From assembly GCA_044425705.1 (NCBI GenBank), contig JAWXVD010000006.1, positions 134 through 64,133 on the forward strand: a DNA stretch of 64,000 nt, read 5' to 3'. Position 1 is the first letter of the stretch. The number at the start of each line of letters is the position of its first letter. The position numbers and the translations under genes were made by a program. Shown here in pieces: positions 10,585 to 52,477 of this stretch. The DNA is from Eubacteriales bacterium (GTDB taxonomy: Bacteria > Bacillota > Clostridia > Lachnospirales > Lachnospiraceae). The notes beneath the pieces were generated by a model that made no database searches, was not told the DNA's origin, and saw nothing but the letters and a program-made list of their open reading frames with translations.

Positions 10585-11472
10585 ATGTACGAATTGATAC
10601 AAGTAGGGAAAAGAACATATTATATTAATTGTCCAGCTAAAATTGGAATTTATAAGATAAACGATACAGAGGTATGCTTGATTGACAGTGGAAATGATAA
10701 GGAAGCGGGAAAGAAAATACTGAAAATTCTAGCAGCTAATCAATGGACATTAAAGATGATAATTAACACTCATTCTCATGCAGACCATATTGGAGGGAAT
10801 TGCCTATTACAGCAAAGAACTCATTGTGAAATTTATACAGTAGGTATTGAATCAGCCTTTACTAGCTTTCCTATCTTGGAATCTTCCTTTTTATATGGTG
10901 GTTATCCATGTAAGGAATTGAGAAACAAATTTCTCTGCGCACAGCCAAGTAATGTAAAGATTTTAACAAAAGAGGTGTTGCCGGAAGGGATGGAAACGAT
11001 TGAAATAAAGGGACACTCCTTGGATATGATAGGACTTAAAACAGAAGATAGTATATGGTTCTTAGCAGATGCATTAACAAGTGAAGCAACTATTGAAAAA
11101 TACCATGTACCATTTCTTTACGATGTAGAATCATATATTGAAACATTACATATGATTGAAAATTTAGAAGGTGACCTTTTCATACCCTCACATGCAGAAC
11201 CTGTGGAAGATATTTCAGCTCTAGTTAGAATTAATTTAGAACAAGTACAACAACTGGTTGGGCTTTTATTGGAAATTTGTAAAAATGAGATAGCATTTGA
11301 TGATATTTTGCAAACAGTTTTTGGACATTATCAATTAAAGATGGACTTTAGTCAACATGTGCTTGTAGGAAGCACCATAAGTTCCTATCTAGCTTATATG
11401 CATGAACAAAAAATGCTAGATGTAGTATTTATAGATGAAAAGCTTTGCTGGAAAACAAATTTCTTCGATTAG
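10585..11472 (+). CDS. MBL-fold metallo-hydrolase
   Basis: HSHADHIGGN metal-binding motif; ATG 10585 has better SD spacing than 10579. Confidence 0.8.
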   Translation: MYELIQVGKRTYYINCPAKIGIYKINDTEVCLIDSGNDKEAGKKILKILAANQWTLKMIINTHSHADHIGGNCLLQQRTHCEIYTVGIESAFTSFPILESSFLYGGYPCKELRNKFLCAQPSNVKILTKEVLPEGMETIEIKGHSLDMIGLKTEDSIWFLADALTSEATIEKYHVPFLYDVESYIETLHMIENLEGDLFIPSHAEPVEDISALVRINLEQVQQLVGLLLEICKNEIAFDDILQTVFGHYQLKMDFSQHVLVGSTISSYLAYMHEQKMLDVVFIDEKLCWKTNFFD

Positions 11473-42130: not shown

Positions 42131-42856
42131 ATGAAGTATCGCAAAAAGAAAAATTATAAACTATTAGATATCAAATATACAGGTTTGATTTTTGTGATTA
42201 TTGTAGCATTTGCATTATTTGGTGCATATTTTCAAAGTGGTGAAGCAGGACAATCTCTTCTTTTTGATGAAATTTATTTGAGAGGACTAGCTGAGACTAC
42301 AGCAAAAAATCTTGTGGCAGGTATTTATCTTGATTATCGATTATTTGATACATTGCTAGAGGCTTTATTATTGTTGGTATCTGTGATTGGAGTGATGCAG
42401 TTTTCACATCTATCTACTGCAGAAAAACAGTTTCCTAATCAAAATAAAAAAATTACTACCATTGAATCATCACACGTGGTGAGAGAATCCTTATTACCCG
42501 TATATATTTTAATAGCCTTATTCGGTCTCTATATTATTCTTACGGGAATGGATGGGCCAGGTGGAGGTTTTCAAGGTGGTGCTATTTTAGTTGCTATTTT
42601 TATCAGTGCACATTTTGCACAAGGTATTACAATATTAAATGTGAATGTTGCGACTAAAATAGAAAAAATCACATATATGTTAATCTTGATAGTAGGTATG
42701 TTTTTTATTGCATACGGAGCAAATTTCACCTATCTAGGACATCGTATTTATTTGATTATAATTAATATTCTAATTGGAATTAAAGTGTGTAGTGGGTTGA
42801 ATCTAATTTATATGTCGTTTATGTTCAGTGAGATGGAGGAAGATAGTGGACTTTAA
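42131..42856 (+). CDS. mnhB: MnhB/MbhE-like antiporter subunit
   Basis: GGGFQGGAIL motif typical of the MnhB domain, multi-TM. Confidence 0.7.
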   Translation: MKYRKKKNYKLLDIKYTGLIFVIIVAFALFGAYFQSGEAGQSLLFDEIYLRGLAETTAKNLVAGIYLDYRLFDTLLEALLLLVSVIGVMQFSHLSTAEKQFPNQNKKITTIESSHVVRESLLPVYILIALFGLYIILTGMDGPGGGFQGGAILVAIFISAHFAQGITILNVNVATKIEKITYMLILIVGMFFIAYGANFTYLGHRIYLIIINILIGIKVCSGLNLIYMSFMFSEMEEDSGL

Positions 42857-45004: not shown

Positions 45005-47419
45005 ATGGCAGTACCTTATAATCACAGAGAGATTGAAGAGAAATGGACTAAAATTTGGGATGCAAACCCAGTCAATGTAAATGATGGAAAGAAACCTAAA
45101 TATTATTGCTTAGATATGTTTCCATATCCATCAGGAAACGGACTTCATGTAGGACACTGGAGAGGTTATGTAATTTCAGATGTTTGGAGTCGTTATAAAA
45201 TGTTAAATGGTGGACATTACATCATTCATCCAATGGGATGGGATGCTTTTGGACTTCCAGCAGAAAACTATGCTATTAAAATGGGTGTACATCCAGCTAT
45301 TTCAACTGCAGAAAATGTATCTAATATTAAAAGACAAATTAATCAAATTGCAGCTCTTTATGATTGGGATATGGAAGTGAATACAACAGATCCTGAATTC
45401 TATAAATGGACACAATGGATTTTTGTAAAAATGTTCAAAGCTGGTCTTGCATACCAAAGAGAAATGCCAATTAACTGGTGTCCTTCTTGTAAGACAGGTC
45501 TAGCCAATGAAGAAGTTGTAAATGGAAAATGCGAACGTTGTGGTTCGGATGTAACAAAGAAAAACTTGAACCAATGGATGCTTAAAATTACAGAATATGC
45601 AGATCGTTTACTTTCAGATCTTGATAAATTAGATTGGCCAGAAAAAGTAAAGAAAATGCAAGCTGATTGGATTGGTAAATCTTACGGAGCTGAAGTAGAT
45701 TTTAAAGTGGAAGGCAGCGAGAAAGCAATTACTGTTTACACGACGAGACCAGATACGCTTTATGGAGCAACCTTTATGGTACTTGCACCAGAACATGAAA
45801 TGGCGGCAAGTCTTGCGACAGAAGAAACAAAAGAAGAAGTAGAAAAATACATTTTCGATGCTTCTATGAAATCCAATGTTGATAGATTACAAGACAAAGA
45901 AAAAACAGGTGTATTTACTGGTACTTATGCAATTAATCCGATCAATGGAGCAAAAGTTCCAATTTGGCTGTCTGATTATGTATTAGCAGATTATGGAACT
46001 GGTGCTATTATGTGTGTACCAGCTCATGATGATAGAGACTTTGAATTTGCGACAAAATTCAATATTCCAATTATTCAAGTAATAGCGAAAGATGGTGTGG
46101 AAATTGAAAACATGGAAGTTGCTTATACAGATGCTGTGGGAACTATGATTAATTCTGGTGAATGGAATGGTCAAGAATCAGCAGTATTGAAAAAAGAAGC
46201 ACCTGCTATGATTGAAGCACGTGGAATCGGTAAAAAGACTACGAACTATAAACTTCGTGACTGGGTATTCTCACGTCAACGTTATTGGGGCGAACCTATT
46301 CCAATTGTACATTGCCCTCACTGTGGATGCGTTCCAGTTCCGGAAGAACAACTTCCATTATTATTACCAGAAGTAGAAACTTACCAACCAACAGGAACAG
46401 GCGAATCACCACTTGCAGATATTGATGAATGGGTAAACACAACATGTCCTACTTGTGGAGCTGCTGCAAAAAGAGAAACAAATACAATGCCTCAATGGGC
46501 AGGATCTTCTTGGTACTTCCTACGTTACGTGGATAGCAAAAATACAGAAGAATTAGTAAGCAAAGAAAAAGCAGAAACATACTTGCCAGTAGATATGTAT
46601 ATTGGTGGTGTAGAACATGCAGTGCTTCACTTATTATATTCTAGATTCTATACAAAATTCTTAAATGATATCGGCGTGGTAGATTTTGATGAACCATTCA
46701 CAAAATTATTTAACCAAGGTATGATCAATGGTAAAAATGGTATTAAAATGTCAAAATCAAAAGGAAATGTAGTATCTCCTGACGATCTTGTAAGAGATTA
46801 TGGTTGTGATTCTTTAAGAATGTACGAATTGTTTGTAGGACCACCAGAACTTGATTCAGAATGGGATGACAGAGGAATTGATGGTGTATATCGTTTTATT
46901 ACACGTTTCTGGAATCTTGTTATGGACAATAAAGATAAAGATGTAGTAGCAACAAAAGAAATGATTAAAGTACGCAATAAAATGGTATATGATATCAGTG
47001 GACGTCTTGAAAACTTTAGCTTAAATACAGTTGTGTCAGGATTTATGGAATATAACAATAAAATGATTGACATGGCTAAAAAAGGCGGAATCGATAAAGA
47101 AACTTTAAAAACAGCAGTGACGTTATTAGCACCATTTGCACCTCACTTATCAGAAGAACTTTGGGCTGAGCTTGGAGAAACTGGTTCCGTATTCCATACA
47201 GTATGGCCTGTAGCAGATGAGGCAGCTATGGTAGATGATGAAAAAGAAGTGGCAGTACAATTAAACGGTAAAACGAAAATTGTAATCAAAGTACCAGCTG
47301 ATATTTCTAAAGAGGATGCTATTGTAGCTGGGAAAGAAGCATTAGCTGATAAATTAGAAGGTAATATTATCAAAGAAATTTATGTACCTGGAAGAATTAT
47401 AAATATTGTAGCAAAATAG
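45005..47419 (+). CDS. leuS: Leucine--tRNA ligase
   Basis: HVGH (HIGH) and KMSKS motifs, CP1 editing domain, ~804 aa; ATG 45005 after AGGAGGAAAG. Confidence 0.95.
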   Translation: MAVPYNHREIEEKWTKIWDANPVNVNDGKKPKYYCLDMFPYPSGNGLHVGHWRGYVISDVWSRYKMLNGGHYIIHPMGWDAFGLPAENYAIKMGVHPAISTAENVSNIKRQINQIAALYDWDMEVNTTDPEFYKWTQWIFVKMFKAGLAYQREMPINWCPSCKTGLANEEVVNGKCERCGSDVTKKNLNQWMLKITEYADRLLSDLDKLDWPEKVKKMQADWIGKSYGAEVDFKVEGSEKAITVYTTRPDTLYGATFMVLAPEHEMAASLATEETKEEVEKYIFDASMKSNVDRLQDKEKTGVFTGTYAINPINGAKVPIWLSDYVLADYGTGAIMCVPAHDDRDFEFATKFNIPIIQVIAKDGVEIENMEVAYTDAVGTMINSGEWNGQESAVLKKEAPAMIEARGIGKKTTNYKLRDWVFSRQRYWGEPIPIVHCPHCGCVPVPEEQLPLLLPEVETYQPTGTGESPLADIDEWVNTTCPTCGAAAKRETNTMPQWAGSSWYFLRYVDSKNTEELVSKEKAETYLPVDMYIGGVEHAVLHLLYSRFYTKFLNDIGVVDFDEPFTKLFNQGMINGKNGIKMSKSKGNVVSPDDLVRDYGCDSLRMYELFVGPPELDSEWDDRGIDGVYRFITRFWNLVMDNKDKDVVATKEMIKVRNKMVYDISGRLENFSLNTVVSGFMEYNNKMIDMAKKGGIDKETLKTAVTLLAPFAPHLSEELWAELGETGSVFHTVWPVADEAAMVDDEKEVAVQLNGKTKIVIKVPADISKEDAIVAGKEALADKLEGNIIKEIYVPGRIINIVAK

Positions 47420-47462
47420 TGATAAGGTCAAAACATAGACCAAAGGCAAAACAATGACAAAG

Positions 47463-47539
47463 GCAAAACAGTAACTATTATTCCTTTATAGGGACGCTCT
47501 CGCCACGCCCTATAGAAGGAAAAATAGTTACTGTTTTGC
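47463..47539. repeat. Long near-perfect inverted repeat (~31-bp arms) downstream of leuS
   Basis: GCAAAACAGTAACTATTATTCCTTTATAGGG / CCCTATAGAAGGAAAAATAGTTACTGTTTTGC around a 14-nt GC-rich loop; preceded by a direct repeat AAAGGCAAAACA x2. Confidence 0.6.
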
Positions 47540-47563
47540 TATTTAGGTTATGTGATGATAAAA

Positions 47564-47615
47564 ATGCATTAATTGATGCATTAATATTGAAAATTGGAAT
47601 ATAATAAGGTATAAT
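47564..47615 (+). promoter_or_regulatory. Candidate operator (ATGCATTAAT x2) and promoter of the toxin-antitoxin pair
   Basis: Direct repeat ATGCATTAAT-TG-ATGCATTAAT directly upstream of TTGAAA, 17 nt spacer, TATAAT. Confidence 0.45.
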
Positions 47616-47637
47616 CGTATTCTAAAGAGGTGATACG

Positions 47638-48048
47638 ATGAATTTACATTATAATCAAAATTATACAAAAGAAGAGATTGATGTAATTCTAGAGAAAATT
47701 AAAAGTTGTATTGGTAACAACAAGTTTACAATAGCATTAAATGAAAATAGACAAGAAAACATAGATTTTATAAACGAATACAACATTCGTAGCAACAAAC
47801 AAAAAAGTATTTTATTGCAAGTGAATACTGAAGATTTTTGTCATACGTTACAAAATAAGAAAATGGGATATGAATACGAAGTTTTGTATGTTTTTGTTCC
47901 GCAAATAGAATTATTTAATGTGGATGGCAAAAAAGAACTTGTTGATATTTACACAAAATTTAATGTTATTGATATGCCTAATGGAAGTAGAACTGTAGTA
48001 GTATCTTTTCATAAGCGGAATAAACCGATAGAATATCTATTTAGATAA
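47638..48048 (+). CDS. MqsR-like toxin (putative ribosome-independent mRNA interferase)
   Basis: Pattern ...EDFCHTL...YEVLYVF...IYTKFNVI....TVVVSFHKRNK parallels E. coli MqsR (..SDFYKSM..QDVYRP..VYLKITVI..LIVSFKEK); toxin-first order, with an MqsA-like gene immediately downstream. Confidence 0.55.
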   Translation: MNLHYNQNYTKEEIDVILEKIKSCIGNNKFTIALNENRQENIDFINEYNIRSNKQKSILLQVNTEDFCHTLQNKKMGYEYEVLYVFVPQIELFNVDGKKELVDIYTKFNVIDMPNGSRTVVVSFHKRNKPIEYLFR

Positions 48049-48074
48049 GGTGTATTTTTAAAGGAGGTATTGTT

Positions 48075-49070
48075 GTGAATGAGCGAAAAATATTCTGTGA
48101 AGAATGTAGAAACGATGTATCTTATAGTATTACAGAGGATTACATGGAAGGAACTATAAGAGGTGAAAAATATACTTATTTAGGTAAAATTGCATATTGT
48201 ATTGATTGCAATTCTGAAATTTATTCACCAGAAATAAATGATTATAATTTGAAGGTGTTGTACGATGAGTATAGGAAAAAACATGGTCTTATTTCTTTAG
48301 ATACCATTTTGAAAATATCTGAAAAGTACGCAATAGGAAAGAGACCTTTATCGTTGTTATTAGGATGGGGTGAACAAACATTTTCACGCTACTGTGATGG
48401 TGATGTTCCAACGAAGCAGTATGCTGAAATACTTCAAAAAATATATGATGAACCTAAATATTATAAACAAATTTTAGAAAAAAATAGAGAAAACCTTAAA
48501 ACTGAAGCATCATATGAAAAAAGTAAAAAGGCAGTTGATGCACTTCTTAGTTATGAAATATATGAAAATTCTAAAATTGATTTAGCAATTAAATATTTAT
48601 TAAATCAGTGTGAAGATATTACACCATTGGCACTCCAAAAAGCATTATACTATATTCAGGGATTTTATTTTGCTTTTTATAATATATTTTTATTTTCAGA
48701 GGATTGTCAGGCCTGGGTTCATGGACCTGTTTATCGAGATGTATATTTTAGGTATCGAGATTATAAATTTGACCCCATTGATAGTAATGGGAGTTTTGAT
48801 GATACAATATTGTCATCATCTGAAAAAGCAGTTTTTGAAAGTGTAACTAGACATGTTTGTTGTTATAGTGGAAAAGTGTTAGAAAAATTCACACATTCTG
48901 AAGCACCATGGTTATTAGCAAGAGGAGAGCTACTGGAGATGGAGCTATCAGATAGGGTGATAAATAAGCATGATATAGGGGAATATTTTAATAGAGTTAA
49001 AAGAAAATACAATATGATTAATCCTAATGATATTAAAGTATATACGCGGACTATGTTTGAACAAATATAG
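48075..49070 (+). CDS. Antitoxin: MqsA-like zinc ribbon + XRE HTH fused to a Panacea (DUF4065/SocA-GepA) domain
   Basis: CEEC...CIDC zinc ribbon, LLLGWGEQTFSRYCDGDVP HTH as in MqsA, then ITPLALQKALYYIQGFYFAF...WVHGPVYRDVY typical of DUF4065. Confidence 0.65.
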   Translation: MNERKIFCEECRNDVSYSITEDYMEGTIRGEKYTYLGKIAYCIDCNSEIYSPEINDYNLKVLYDEYRKKHGLISLDTILKISEKYAIGKRPLSLLLGWGEQTFSRYCDGDVPTKQYAEILQKIYDEPKYYKQILEKNRENLKTEASYEKSKKAVDALLSYEIYENSKIDLAIKYLLNQCEDITPLALQKALYYIQGFYFAFYNIFLFSEDCQAWVHGPVYRDVYFRYRDYKFDPIDSNGSFDDTILSSSEKAVFESVTRHVCCYSGKVLEKFTHSEAPWLLARGELLEMELSDRVINKHDIGEYFNRVKRKYNMINPNDIKVYTRTMFEQI

Positions 49071-49125
49071 GTGAAGAGCATCTAACTGGAGTGTTGGGTG
49101 CTTTTATTTATAAAAAAATATAACA

Positions 49126-49145
49126 ACGTCATATAATGACGTCAT
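49126..49145. promoter_or_regulatory. Overlapping palindromes around a TATAAT box
   Basis: ACGTCAT-ATA-ATGACGT, and ATGACGTCAT; TATAAT at 49132-49137. Confidence 0.4.
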
Positions 49146-50006
49146 TGCATGATATACGATTATATTTAAGCGAATTGTTCTGTAATGAAGAACTAATTTA
49201 TGATAGACAAGAAAATATTTATTATCTTTCGGGTGCGGAGAGAAAAACACTGGAAACCATGGAGTATCTATTAATTGAACGAGTGTTATTAGATACGGGT
49301 GTACTTCGCACTGATGAGATGGATGGGTTGCTTACCCATTTAGCATCAAATGTTAAAGATGCAAGTAAAATGAAATTTAGAGAAAAACAATATATCGGAC
49401 AATATCAGGAACCGCTTCATAAAAAAGCAATTCTTAAAATGCATGGTGATTTGATAATTATGATAACAAATCAGTTTGTTATTAAAATGAATATACTAAA
49501 ATGGATGGAGAGATAGTTGAAAGAGAAGTTGTTCCATGTATCATTAAATACGATTTAGGTTATCTGTATTTGGTAGCTTTTTTACATCCAAGTGATAAAC
49601 CATATCTGGCATATTTTCGATTGGATAGAATCTATTCATTTTCTGTGATTAGAAAGCAGAAAATTGAGGAAATTAATGTGTTGCAGATTATGTCAAGAGT
49701 GGTGCAAAGGGGATTGTTCAGATGTATAGTGGTAGATTTATAGATGTCCTCCTTTCTTGTAAAAAGGAGTTTTATCCATATGTATATGATAAGTTTAGAA
49801 ACTTAGATATTTTGCAAGATGAAGGGGATATTGTAAAGATAAAGGTGCATGTATTTGAAGATGGTTTTATCAAGTGGATGATGAGTCAACCAGTTGAATT
49901 GATACATATTATAGAACCAAAAAGTTTACAAGCGAAAATGGTAAAAGAAGCAAATGAATTATTAAAAGCTTATATGGAGGTACAAAAGAATGGCAAAGAA
50001 GATTAG
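49136..50006 (+). pseudogene. WYL-domain transcriptional regulator, 5'-truncated and frameshifted twice
   Basis: Three consecutive ORFs in different frames together give linker + WYL domain (REVVPCIIKYDLGYLYLVAF...YFRLDRI) + C-terminal domain. The N-terminal wHTH is missing. Frame changes occur near 49484-49492 and 49676-49690. Confidence 0.65.
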
Positions 50007-51109
50007 ATTTTCATTGGAAATGGAGCATGGTGTAGAAGTACGAACATTAGAAGAGTTAAGGAATAATATTGTTTTATTTATCAAATGGCAAGTTGGTTAC
50101 ATGGCTTAGAGATCGATATGAAGATGAAATAGCAGATAAGATTACAGAATTAGATAGTGAAGATAGTGCATTGGCAGAAAAGATATGTGAAATTCTAGGA
50201 GTGGAATATAATGAAGAAGTAATTGCTAATTTGGAAAAAATAGAAGAACGAAATAAAAAATTGAGTATTCTTAAGGAATATACTGAAGAACAGCAATTTT
50301 TAGATGTGGTAGATCAAGTAGCATTTACCCAAGATGATATATATGATTTGTTAGATGAAGGGGAAACAATAATCTATCTTTGCGGTGAAAAATTTTCTGT
50401 TCCACTTAGCAAAAAGGGGATGACTTATATAGGTGTGAATCAACCAACTGTTGTCATTGATTCAAAGAAAATTATTGATTGGGATGAAAAAGACATCAGG
50501 TTTGTTGATGTGAAGTTTGATAAGGTATATCAGAAAATAGTGGAAGATGTGAAACAGGATAGCGAGAGAGTAGATAATAGAACTAGTTATGGTTCTTATA
50601 AAGAGACCTATCTAAAGTCTATGCTTTCGGAAGATGATAAGGTGATTGCAAATCATTGTTATGAGAAATTAATAAGTGAAATTATTGAATTTAACTTTGA
50701 TATAGAAGAGAAAAATGTGAAGTTTGTAGCAATTGTAGATTATGTGAATGTTTTTTTCATTGATGTCATGTCATTAAAGAAAATTTTTAGGTATAGGTCA
50801 ATCATAGATGGGAGTAAAGTCAGGGATACAGAGGAAATTATGACGAATACTGGTTTAGCGATGATTTTTGATTATGAAAAGTTGAATGACTATGGAAAGG
50901 AAATTATGAAATATAGTCATTTACATATGGAAGCTAGGAGCCTTAAGGAAGATTTTTGGTTTCGAGTTTATCCTAATATGAATGATTTTAAAAATAAAGA
51001 ATATAAAATTCAAGCAGCAAAATTGCTAAAAAATCTTTGTAAACAAGAAGAAAATTCTCAAACAGCACATAAGTTTCTTTTATGGACGATATGGAAAATT
51101 ATGATATAG
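49990..51109 (+). pseudogene. Unknown-function gene coupled to the WYL gene, frameshifted near codon 27
   Basis: MAKKIRFSLEMEHGVEVRTLEELRNN (ATG 49990, overlapping the WYL stop) continues in the +1 frame as ..FYLSNGKLVTWLRDRYEDE.. (ORF 50069-51109); the shift maps to GTTTTATTTA. Confidence 0.5.
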
Positions 51110-51242
51110 AAAATCACCATGAATTGTCATTTTCAAAAATAAAATGGTATTATTATGAAATGTTTAGAAAATTATAATAAAATTCATAGTAGTAGGTTGG
51201 TTGTAGTTATTTTGTTAGTGAATAGAGAACAAGGAGCAATAT

Positions 51243-51772
51243 ATGGAAAATAAAACATTAAAATCAAAATTAGTGAGATACATGGATGCAGGGTTTCCTG
51301 TTATCTACATTAACACCTTTGAAGAGGATAAAGTGGATACAATTATAAATGAAATCCATGGTGGTAAGGAAGTTTACGAATGGAATGAAACTAATGGATA
51401 CATAGATTTTGAAACAAAGACACCGATGATTGAGGATTGTACATTGGAGATGATGCTTGACCAATTTAAAATGCAGGAAATGCTCGATAGAAAGATTATT
51501 CTTTTAAAGGACATCAATGTTTATTTAGATGATGCTAGGATTGTTTCTAAGCTGAAAGGTTTGGCTAAAATGATTAGTCAAGGAGCAGATGCGATAGTTA
51601 TTATTGTTTCAAATATTTTGATTATTCCAAAAGAATTAGAAAAATTTATTACTATCTTAGAAATGGATTATTTAAATAGTGAGGAGATTCAGGAAATTGT
51701 CTTAAACTTTATTCAAGATACTAGAGCGGATGTAATAGGGGTTAATTTGGTAGAGGAATTGGCGGTTGCGAA
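51243..51772 (+). pseudogene. Ycf46-like AAA+ ATPase, N-terminal domain only (ATPase core deleted)
   Basis: KLVRYMDAGFPVIYINTFEEDKV resembles the N-domain of Ycf46-type AAA+ proteins. The sensible sequence ends near 51770, before any Walker A motif. Confidence 0.45.
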
Positions 51773-51781
51773 GATGGAATT

Positions 51782-52477
51782 ATGCCTAGTATGGATTATA
51801 GCCATTATCAGACAAAGGATTTGGCCATGTCTATTGGGAAAAATGCAGCTGCTATGGGACTGCAAACAGCAGCTGTCACAACAGGGTTACATATAGCAAA
51901 GAAAATTTTTGAAGGGGAACAAGTAGATGCGGATGAATTGGTGGAAGTGGCAATTAAGACAGGAGCGGACACTTCGATAAAAGTAGTGACAGCAGGAACT
52001 CTTCAAGTTGCTATTAGAAAAGGTATTATCAGTATGATACCAAAAGTCACTCCAGCGGGAGTCATTGCAAATATTGCTTGTGTAGGTATTGAAAATGTAA
52101 AAATTTTAGGAAAAATAGCATCTGGAGAATTATCTATCACAAAAGGTTTAGATCATATGGGAAGAACCACAACCTCTATGGTAGGTGGTTTAGTTGGTAT
52201 GGGAAAGGGAGCTGTTTTAGGAGCAAAATTAACAGCATGGATTCCTGTAATAGGAGCCCCACTAGCTGTAGCAACAGGACTTGTTGGAGGAATGGTTGGC
52301 TACTTTGGTGGTTCTAAAATTGGTGAAACAATTTATAACGCAGGAAAGAAAGTAGCTAGTGTAGCAAAGACAGTAGCGAAAACTGCTGTAAATGGATTGA
52401 AAGAGGTAGGTAGAGCAGTAGTAAGTGGAGTAACAAATTTTGTAAGTGCTATAGCTAGTTTGTTTGGATTTTGCTGA
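51782..52477 (+). CDS. Glycine-zipper-rich membrane protein, function unknown (5' end uncertain)
   Basis: GGLVGMGKGAVLGAKL...GLVGGMVGYFGGSKIG glycine-zipper segments; the frame is open upstream to 51746, so the N-terminus may be truncated. Confidence 0.45.
   Translation: MPSMDYSHYQTKDLAMSIGKNAAAMGLQTAAVTTGLHIAKKIFEGEQVDADELVEVAIKTGADTSIKVVTAGTLQVAIRKGIISMIPKVTPAGVIANIACVGIENVKILGKIASGELSITKGLDHMGRTTTSMVGGLVGMGKGAVLGAKLTAWIPVIGAPLAVATGLVGGMVGYFGGSKIGETIYNAGKKVASVAKTVAKTAVNGLKEVGRAVVSGVTNFVSAIASLFGFC

Follow-up and report, generated by a model that had tools for sequence, protein, structure and literature searches.

Among the known systems most similar to the locus described here is the MqsR_D2:PanA pair of Bacillus fungorum (toxin WP_099686063.1, antitoxin WP_099686064.1), a bicistronic type II toxin–antitoxin module studied by Ernits et al. 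2023 (PMC10440598). The antitoxin, a PanA protein of 349 amino acids (aa), combines a Panacea (DUF4065) domain with an MqsA-type zinc-binding domain (ZBD) and a helix-turn-helix (HTH) domain; the ZBD alone or ZBD-HTH neutralises the toxin while Panacea or HTH-Panacea does not. Substitution of Tyr97 removes the toxicity of the B. fungorum toxin, both toxicity and neutralisation were validated in E. coli for this pair and for its counterpart from Lactobacillus rossiae, and the authors favoured a sensory role for Panacea (PMC10440598). More generally, where a toxin domain can be recognised next to a Panacea antitoxin it is most often MqsR-like (n = 90; Kurata et al. 2022, PMC8832971), and DUF4065 had been predicted as an alternative MqsR antitoxin in 2013, as cited by Kurata et al. 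(PMC8832971). We have analysed a 64,000 nt stretch of contig JAWXVD010000006.1 (hereafter the window) from an uncultured Eubacteriales metagenome-assembled genome (MAG), in which two adjacent genes probably constitute a self-contained type II toxin–antitoxin cassette like the MqsR:PanA pairs already published (PanAT toxin group T2 / NetFlax node D2). As in B. fungorum and L. rossiae, an MqsR-like toxin is joined in a bicistron to a ZBD(MqsA)-HTH-Panacea antitoxin; in contrast to those two modules the window pair is a prediction from sequence, and its 331-aa antitoxin is likened to the 349-aa B. fungorum protein by described architecture and similar length.

Two nearer relatives are listed in Dataset S1 of Kurata et al. 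(PMC8832971). The pair from Anaerovorax odorimutans (WP_027399265.1/WP_027399266.1) is entered there as PanA (HTH) with a toxin of group T2, toxin first, with a gap of 26 and the remark 'notest', and the pair from Lagierella massiliensis (WP_055078734.1/WP_055078733.1), also T2, is likewise a prediction only ('notest'); other members of group T2 carry an annotation as MqsR family toxins. The Anaerovorax antitoxin WP_027399265.1 (P0226 in our set) aligns with the whole of the window antitoxin at 69% identity and belongs to the same subfamily, and the two loci have the toxin-first order and the 26-nt gap in common. At the Lagierella locus (L022), where the toxin gene also comes first, the antitoxin is 65% and the toxin 60% identical to those of the window. 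In both entries the antitoxin N-terminus is labelled merely 'HTH'. Since the subfamily is present in Dataset S1 and the architecture has been dissected in B. fungorum, the locus belongs to a known family. The presence of two potential neutralisation modules on one antitoxin, pointed out in a first-pass annotation of this DNA, had thus already been tackled with the B. fungorum MqsR:PanA pair, and a 69% identical orthologue had been catalogued (PMC10440598, PMC8832971). Architecture, toxin pairing and the question of why MqsA should carry a Panacea domain are all in the literature with experiments, and they carry little weight as a discovery. The locus is rather an intact example, from a gut-type member of the Bacillota, of a large subfamily that is catalogued but experimentally unexplored. 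New here are the operator consensus TGYAYYAATTRRTRCA, the exact limits of the cassette and a list of conserved toxin residues; consensus and limits can be used for annotating such modules and for binding or trigger experiments on the role of Panacea.

The gene structure, the domain content, the family-level homology, the conservation of gene order and of the operator element, and the boundaries of the cassette could be established. The toxin gene (47638–48048, plus strand) is an intact open reading frame (ORF) of 136 aa with an ATG start, and the antitoxin gene follows after 26 nt on the same strand (48075–49070, GTG start, 331 aa, intact), in agreement with the two intact, toxin-first ORFs of the first-pass annotation. 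Each is preceded by a Shine–Dalgarno sequence readable in the plus strand: AGAGGTGA at 47626–47633 for the toxin gene, of which AGAGGTG is kept in most related loci, and AAGGAGG at 48061–48067, 7 nt before the GTG, for the antitoxin gene. The database record of the 136-aa protein (uncultured Eubacteriales bacterium) describes it as hypothetical. A scan of species-representative genomes for antitoxin relatives returned 80 loci, many of them in Bacillota and others in Fusobacterium, Veillonella, Gemella and further groups; in about 62 of these loci the antitoxin is immediately preceded by a toxin homologue, which ends ~25–30 nt before the antitoxin start.

The arrangement could operate as follows. 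A single sigma-70 promoter would drive a bicistron with the toxin gene first, and the 136-aa protein, a putative MqsR-like endoribonuclease of the RelE superfamily, would cleave mRNA and so arrest growth. Judging from the B. fungorum truncations, the N-terminal zinc ribbon of the antitoxin should bind and neutralise the toxin. The XRE-type HTH would dimerise and bind TGCATTAATTGATGCA upstream of the −35 element, leading to autorepression of the operon, as suggested by the conserved palindrome and by E. coli MqsA. The C-terminal Panacea domain would then be an accessory module rather than a neutraliser in this protein, probably sensory or regulatory, and apparently under strong purifying selection. 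Toxicity, ribonuclease (RNase) activity, the identity of the neutralising domain and DNA binding are all inferred in this scheme.

Domains of the antitoxin and the role of Panacea

The 331-aa antitoxin is supported as a fusion of MqsA, that is a zinc ribbon plus an HTH, with a Panacea domain. The MqsA-type ZBD, presumptively the neutralising part, comprises residues 1–68 (48075–48278, plus strand as for the following segments) with Cys8, Cys11, Cys42 and Cys45. It is followed by an XRE-type HTH at residues 69–135 (48279–48479; GKRPLSLLLGWGEQTFSRY), which aligns with the HTH of MqsA and would serve in dimerisation and operator binding. The NCBIfam model of the MqsA family, TIGR03830, spans both (residues 8–133, model positions 1–126 of 127) with 64.5 bits, slightly over its cut-off of 61.8, and a phmmer search matched residues 11–127 to E. 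coli MqsA in PDB entry 3GN5 (E 1.6e-3) with the second CxxC and the FSRY motif in register. The MqsA-type layout of a CxxC...CxxC zinc ribbon and an HTH with FSRY, as originally proposed, is thereby borne out. A helical linker (residues 136–170, 48480–48584) represents the least conserved segment, with a mean pairwise identity of 0.39, and leads into the Panacea (DUF4065/SocA-like) part formed by residues 171–331 plus the stop codon (48585–49070). Here PF13274 covers residues 187–279 (48633–48911; E 6.5e-16, 59.7 bits compared with a gathering score of 25.7, model positions 1–112 of 113), so that the C-terminal DUF4065 domain of the first-pass annotation is likewise upheld.

E. coli MqsA has the same four-Cys zinc domain followed on the C-terminal side by an XRE HTH with FSRY, while the window antitoxin has an extra Panacea domain of 160 residues. 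In the E. coli protein the zinc domain binds the toxin and DNA binding needs the HTH domain only (PMC2791442). An AlphaFold2 model of the antitoxin reached an overall predicted local distance difference test (pLDDT) score of 76 from a shallow alignment, with a poorly modelled HTH of low pLDDT; the ZBD is beta-rich (pLDDT 87–91) and helices are predicted at residues 144–158 and 167–178. A Foldseek comparison of this model with the PDB returned MqsA (3GN5_A) as top and only significant match (E 9.4e-4, 134 columns), and the Panacea part matched no solved structure in that search. The Caulobacter crescentus type VI system SocA/SocB has the Panacea/DUF4065 domain of its SocA in common with the window antitoxin. 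SocA lacks an MqsA module and acts as adaptor of ClpXP for a replication toxin. Assignment of the window protein to the SocA type was rejected, the NCBIfam model SocA_antitoxin (NF047745) scoring 38.8 bits compared with a cut-off of 190.

All parts of the fusion appear to be maintained. The four cysteines are invariant in 34–35 homologues down to 34% identity, Arg105 and Tyr106 of the HTH are nearly invariant, and the Panacea domain has its own set of invariant positions (TPLxLQKxLY, C211, AW, GP, H274, E276, PW and R283). Mean pairwise identities amount to 0.48 for the zinc ribbon, 0.60 for the HTH and 0.55–0.60 for Panacea. Panacea is therefore no decaying appendage, as it is conserved to the same degree as the HTH and more than the zinc ribbon. 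The idea that the fusion represents an evolutionary intermediate also becomes unlikely in view of its wide distribution, with 2679 database proteins matching the antitoxin, the best 120 of which are all full length.

One could also argue that Panacea itself neutralises the toxin, as in the canonical single-domain PanA proteins, and that the MqsA-like N-terminus only serves in DNA binding and autoregulation. This would agree with the direct neutralisation of many unrelated toxins by Panacea (PMC8832971) and with the superior conservation of this domain relative to the zinc ribbon. We nevertheless find it unlikely, given that in B. fungorum the ZBD alone neutralises while Panacea alone and HTH-Panacea do not (PMC10440598), and that in E. 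coli MqsA the zinc domain contacts the toxin and the HTH suffices for DNA (PMC2791442); a lower conservation of the ZBD is moreover to be expected for a toxin-contacting surface that co-evolves with the toxin. The Panacea domain has an invariant polar cluster composed of Gln188, Lys189, Gln195, Cys211, Trp214, His274, Glu276, Trp279 and Arg283, which might mark a binding site. A rather speculative extension is that Panacea senses a trigger, such as a phage protein or a small ligand, and allosterically makes the zinc ribbon let go of the MqsR-like RNase; the cassette would then act as an abortive-infection defence module.

Promoter and candidate operator

The toxin gene is preceded by a sigma-70-type promoter (47587–47615, plus strand) with a −35 element TTGAAA at 47587–47592, a 17-nt spacer and a −10 element TATAAT at 47610–47615. 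With 11 out of 12 matches it is the best promoter-like site within 47380–49250, in accordance with the good promoter previously noted downstream of a repeat, and related loci keep an equivalent TTGACA-17-TATCAT/TATAAT. A 16-bp palindrome, TGCATTAATTGATGCA, is located 6 bp upstream of the −35 element (47565–47580, unstranded). It was compared with the 39 related loci for which the upstream region is long enough; farther upstream these loci are unrelated. In 38 of them a palindrome of consensus T-G-Y-A-Y-Y-A-A-T-T-R-R-T-R-C-A is all that is conserved ahead of the −35, from which it is separated by 5–9 bp. Columns G-5, A-3 and C+8 are identical in 38/38 loci and T+6 in 37/38, while the flanks carry ~0 bits. 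The window copy conforms to the consensus at every position, and no other perfect match exists in the 64 kb.

E. coli MqsA binds via its HTH to the palindrome AACCT(N)3AGGTT in its own promoter (PMC4894380). The window element differs from it in sequence, but it looks like the same kind of site and is a candidate operator for the antitoxin.

The first-pass annotation had singled out a direct repeat as autoregulatory operator at this spot. The repeat is real: ATGCATTAAT occurs twice in the plus strand (47564–47573 and 47576–47585), 100% identical with a 12-nt period and directly upstream of the promoter, and an operator-like element is indeed present at this position. What is conserved in the family is nonetheless an inverted repeat. 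The direct repeat is a consequence of the ATGCAT half-site being a palindrome in its own right. In the family alignment the last 5 nt of the repeat occupy columns +10 to +14, where conservation is weak, and we ruled the repeat out as a functional unit, conservation being limited to the palindromic core.

Two further operator-like sites with one mismatch occur in the window, at 10586–10601 and 42211–42226, compared with 0.21 matches expected in all. The first coincides with codons 3–8 of a metallo-beta-lactamase-fold gene and the second lies within a gene for an MnhB-like antiporter subunit; we discarded both as additional regulatory targets since they are inside the coding sequence of ordinary genes, and they are probably due to chance.

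Some loci depart from the common layout. The one locus lacking a TGYAYYAATTRRTRCA box stems from an Abditibacteriota MAG (L053:2870-3000; antitoxin 52% identical) and has a different repeat in its promoter region, TCAGTGATTTT ... TCGGTGACTTT, which suggests operator turnover. In two Veillonella loci (L045 and L052) the palindrome is situated nearer to the toxin start codon and lacks a TTGACA at the customary spacing behind it, and a second CAATTGAT-like half site is found ~20 nt downstream. Promoter and operator seem to be laid out differently there.

The toxin as a divergent relative of MqsR

The 136-aa protein belongs to a family of considerable size, which falls into 1307 clusters at 90% identity and is represented by 429 sequences at 50%. 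Comparisons were based on an alignment of 79 diverse full-length members of this family and one of 38 bona fide MqsR proteins. Scanned singly, 28 of the 79 toxin-family members match the Pfam family MqsR_toxin (PF15723), with a best E of 3.5e-6, and other families are reached by at most three members each. A profile-profile comparison of the two alignments with hhalign gave 94.4% (E 8.8e-8) over 89 columns covering MqsR residues 10–100, and 79% was obtained when the toxin family was compared with the single E. coli MqsR sequence, which was checked against 3HI2_B. The motifs noticed at the outset in the 136-aa protein line up with those of E. coli MqsR in the profile alignment, which pairs DFCH with DFYK, IYTKF with VYLKI and VSFH with VSFK.

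The toxin family has two invariant residues, Phe86 and Lys107, and at least 90% of its members share Arg38, Asn41, Tyr105, Ser123 and His125. Tyr105, Lys107 and Ser123 fall on Tyr81, Lys83 and Ser94 of MqsR, positions at which both families are invariant or nearly so, and the nearly invariant His125 aligns with Lys96. In E. coli MqsR the residues that matter for toxicity are Lys56, Gln68, Tyr81 and Lys96 (PMC2791442); only Tyr81 is conserved as such in the window toxin. Both systems have the toxin gene first. The window toxin is longer than E. coli MqsR (136 versus 98 aa) and recognisable by profiles only.

MqsR folds into a six-stranded sheet with three helices in the order b1-a1-b2-a2-a3-b3-b4-b5-b6 (PMC2791442). 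The AlphaFold2 model of the toxin (pLDDT 96) has helices at residues 11–26, 39–47 and 52–60 and strands at 30–32, 67–72, 82–86, 89–93, 99–113 and 116–126, i.e. three helices with successive strands arranged as in MqsR and one additional hairpin. The predicted fold is thus consistent with MqsR but stays unconfirmed, and on profile evidence the family can be regarded as a well-supported divergent branch of MqsR.

A number of results weigh against the assignment of the locus as a whole. Of the Pfam families against which the first-pass annotation had proposed to compare the two proteins, DUF4065 is reached well above threshold, whereas the antitoxin attains only 22.5 bits with MqsA_antitoxin (PF15731), below the gathering score of 30, and the toxin alone has no match to PF15723 at E values up to 1. 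A PF15731 match is precomputed for many close homologues of the antitoxin. The 136-aa protein also gave no meaningful match in NCBIfam, PADLOC or the PDB sequences, and the profile of its family did not reach 3HI2/MqsR in an hmmsearch of the PDB sequences. With respect to residues, Lys56 of MqsR aligns with His69 of the toxin in a variable column and Gln68 falls in an unaligned insert. A Foldseek search of the PDB with the toxin model returned no significant match, the best being an NTF2-like/CaMKII hub structure at E 0.09, and 3HI2 was absent from the top 50. On the antitoxin side, the presumed neutralising function of the zinc ribbon depends on analogy with B. fungorum, a relative of like architecture. 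Finally, the candidate operator is placed upstream of the −35 element and not over the core promoter, a less obvious place for simple repression.

Taken to their limit, the findings on the toxin could mean that the 136-aa protein is not an RNase of the MqsR/RelE fold at all but some other small alpha/beta protein, be it a toxin of different activity, a non-toxic partner or a co-regulator, and that its likeness to MqsR results from motif convergence. The missing match of the single sequence to any MqsR model, the weak NTF2-like structures as only Foldseek matches, the 38 additional residues and the lack of conserved Lys56 and Gln68 equivalents would all fit. Convergence would on the other hand have to account for the 28 diverse members that reach the MqsR family independently, for a profile match that spans nearly all of MqsR with Tyr81, Lys83 and Ser94 coinciding, for the grouping by Kurata et al. 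of the toxin beside the orthologue (T2) with proteins annotated as MqsR family toxins (PMC8832971), and for a partner that carries the MqsA-type zinc ribbon, the very domain that binds MqsR. We therefore judge it quite improbable. The likeness to MqsR stands at the family level, though not for the protein taken alone.

The sole library match of the toxin was phrog_34059, a family of unassigned function, and a tblastn search of 50,697 phage records with the toxin gave no match. A search of BFVD with the toxin model yielded one match (E 7.8e-5), a phage protein of 124 aa that bears the name 'HTH-type transcriptional regulator' in error.

Cassette limits, relatives and neighbouring genes

DNA similarity between the related loci and the window starts abruptly at 47555–47566, at the operator candidate, and ends at 49066–49075, the homology being limited to about 47558–49070. 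From these limits it follows that the conserved unit is a cassette of 1.5 kb, made up of operator, promoter and the two genes, which occurs in unrelated contexts. A terminator-like hairpin with a U-tract is predicted by RNA folding 3′ of the antitoxin stop (49076–49112, plus strand) and lies outside the conserved cassette; folding of 49060–49125 gave −20.3 kcal/mol with z = −5.99, the stem being followed by UUUUAUUUAU.

The cassette is placed between a leuS-like gene and a broken gene for a WYL regulator. That the neighbours are damaged, as first described, holds for the downstream side, where the WYL gene is split into three ORFs and another gene into two; the leuS-like gene upstream is intact (812 aa). 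The broken genes downstream, and the frequent loss or truncation of the toxin in related loci, might suggest that the cassette is itself a decaying remnant without current function. This is very improbable for a locus in which both ORFs are full length with all family-invariant residues present, and in which promoter, operator and both ribosome-binding sites fit the family consensus.

In several related loci the toxin is missing or truncated. No adjacent toxin homologue accompanies the full-length antitoxin in L021, L025, L030, L049, L055 and L077, and a truncated toxin is found beside a full-length antitoxin in L024, L027, L038, L039, L043 and L068. At L076:2761-2970 an in-frame internal deletion has left a 69-aa toxin remnant, again with a full-length antitoxin. 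Outlasting of the toxin by the antitoxin is usual for toxin–antitoxin decay. The retention of such antitoxins is compatible with an independent antitoxin role as well and, like the polar cluster in Panacea, with a function beyond neutralisation, although neither demonstrates one. Distant full-length relatives of the fusion (~25% identity) are also present in a few phage records, e.g. Lactococcus phage bIL311, and phrog_10390 covers residues 26–312 of the antitoxin.

Between the leuS-like stop codon and the cassette lies a very stable long hairpin (47462–47541) with 24-nt arms that are 96% complementary and an inner extension (−46.5 kcal/mol, z = −7.75). A direct repeat containing GCAAAAYA (47411–47435 and 47446–47470) flanks the hairpin, whose arm sequence is found nowhere else in the window. 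The hairpin may represent the terminator of leuS or a scar left where the cassette was inserted.

On the other side, the three ORFs of the WYL-domain regulator gene (49136–50006) overlap in different frames, and the second and third match consecutive parts of one PADLOC WYL model (positions 41–92 and 97–162). The adjoining region 50069–52477 contains an ORF of 346 aa and, after it, a gene broken up into two overlapping ORFs (51243–51896 and 51782–52477); none of the three has a match in Pfam, NCBIfam or PADLOC. Together with the WYL fragment, this region could be a degraded defence or mobile island adjoining the cassette.

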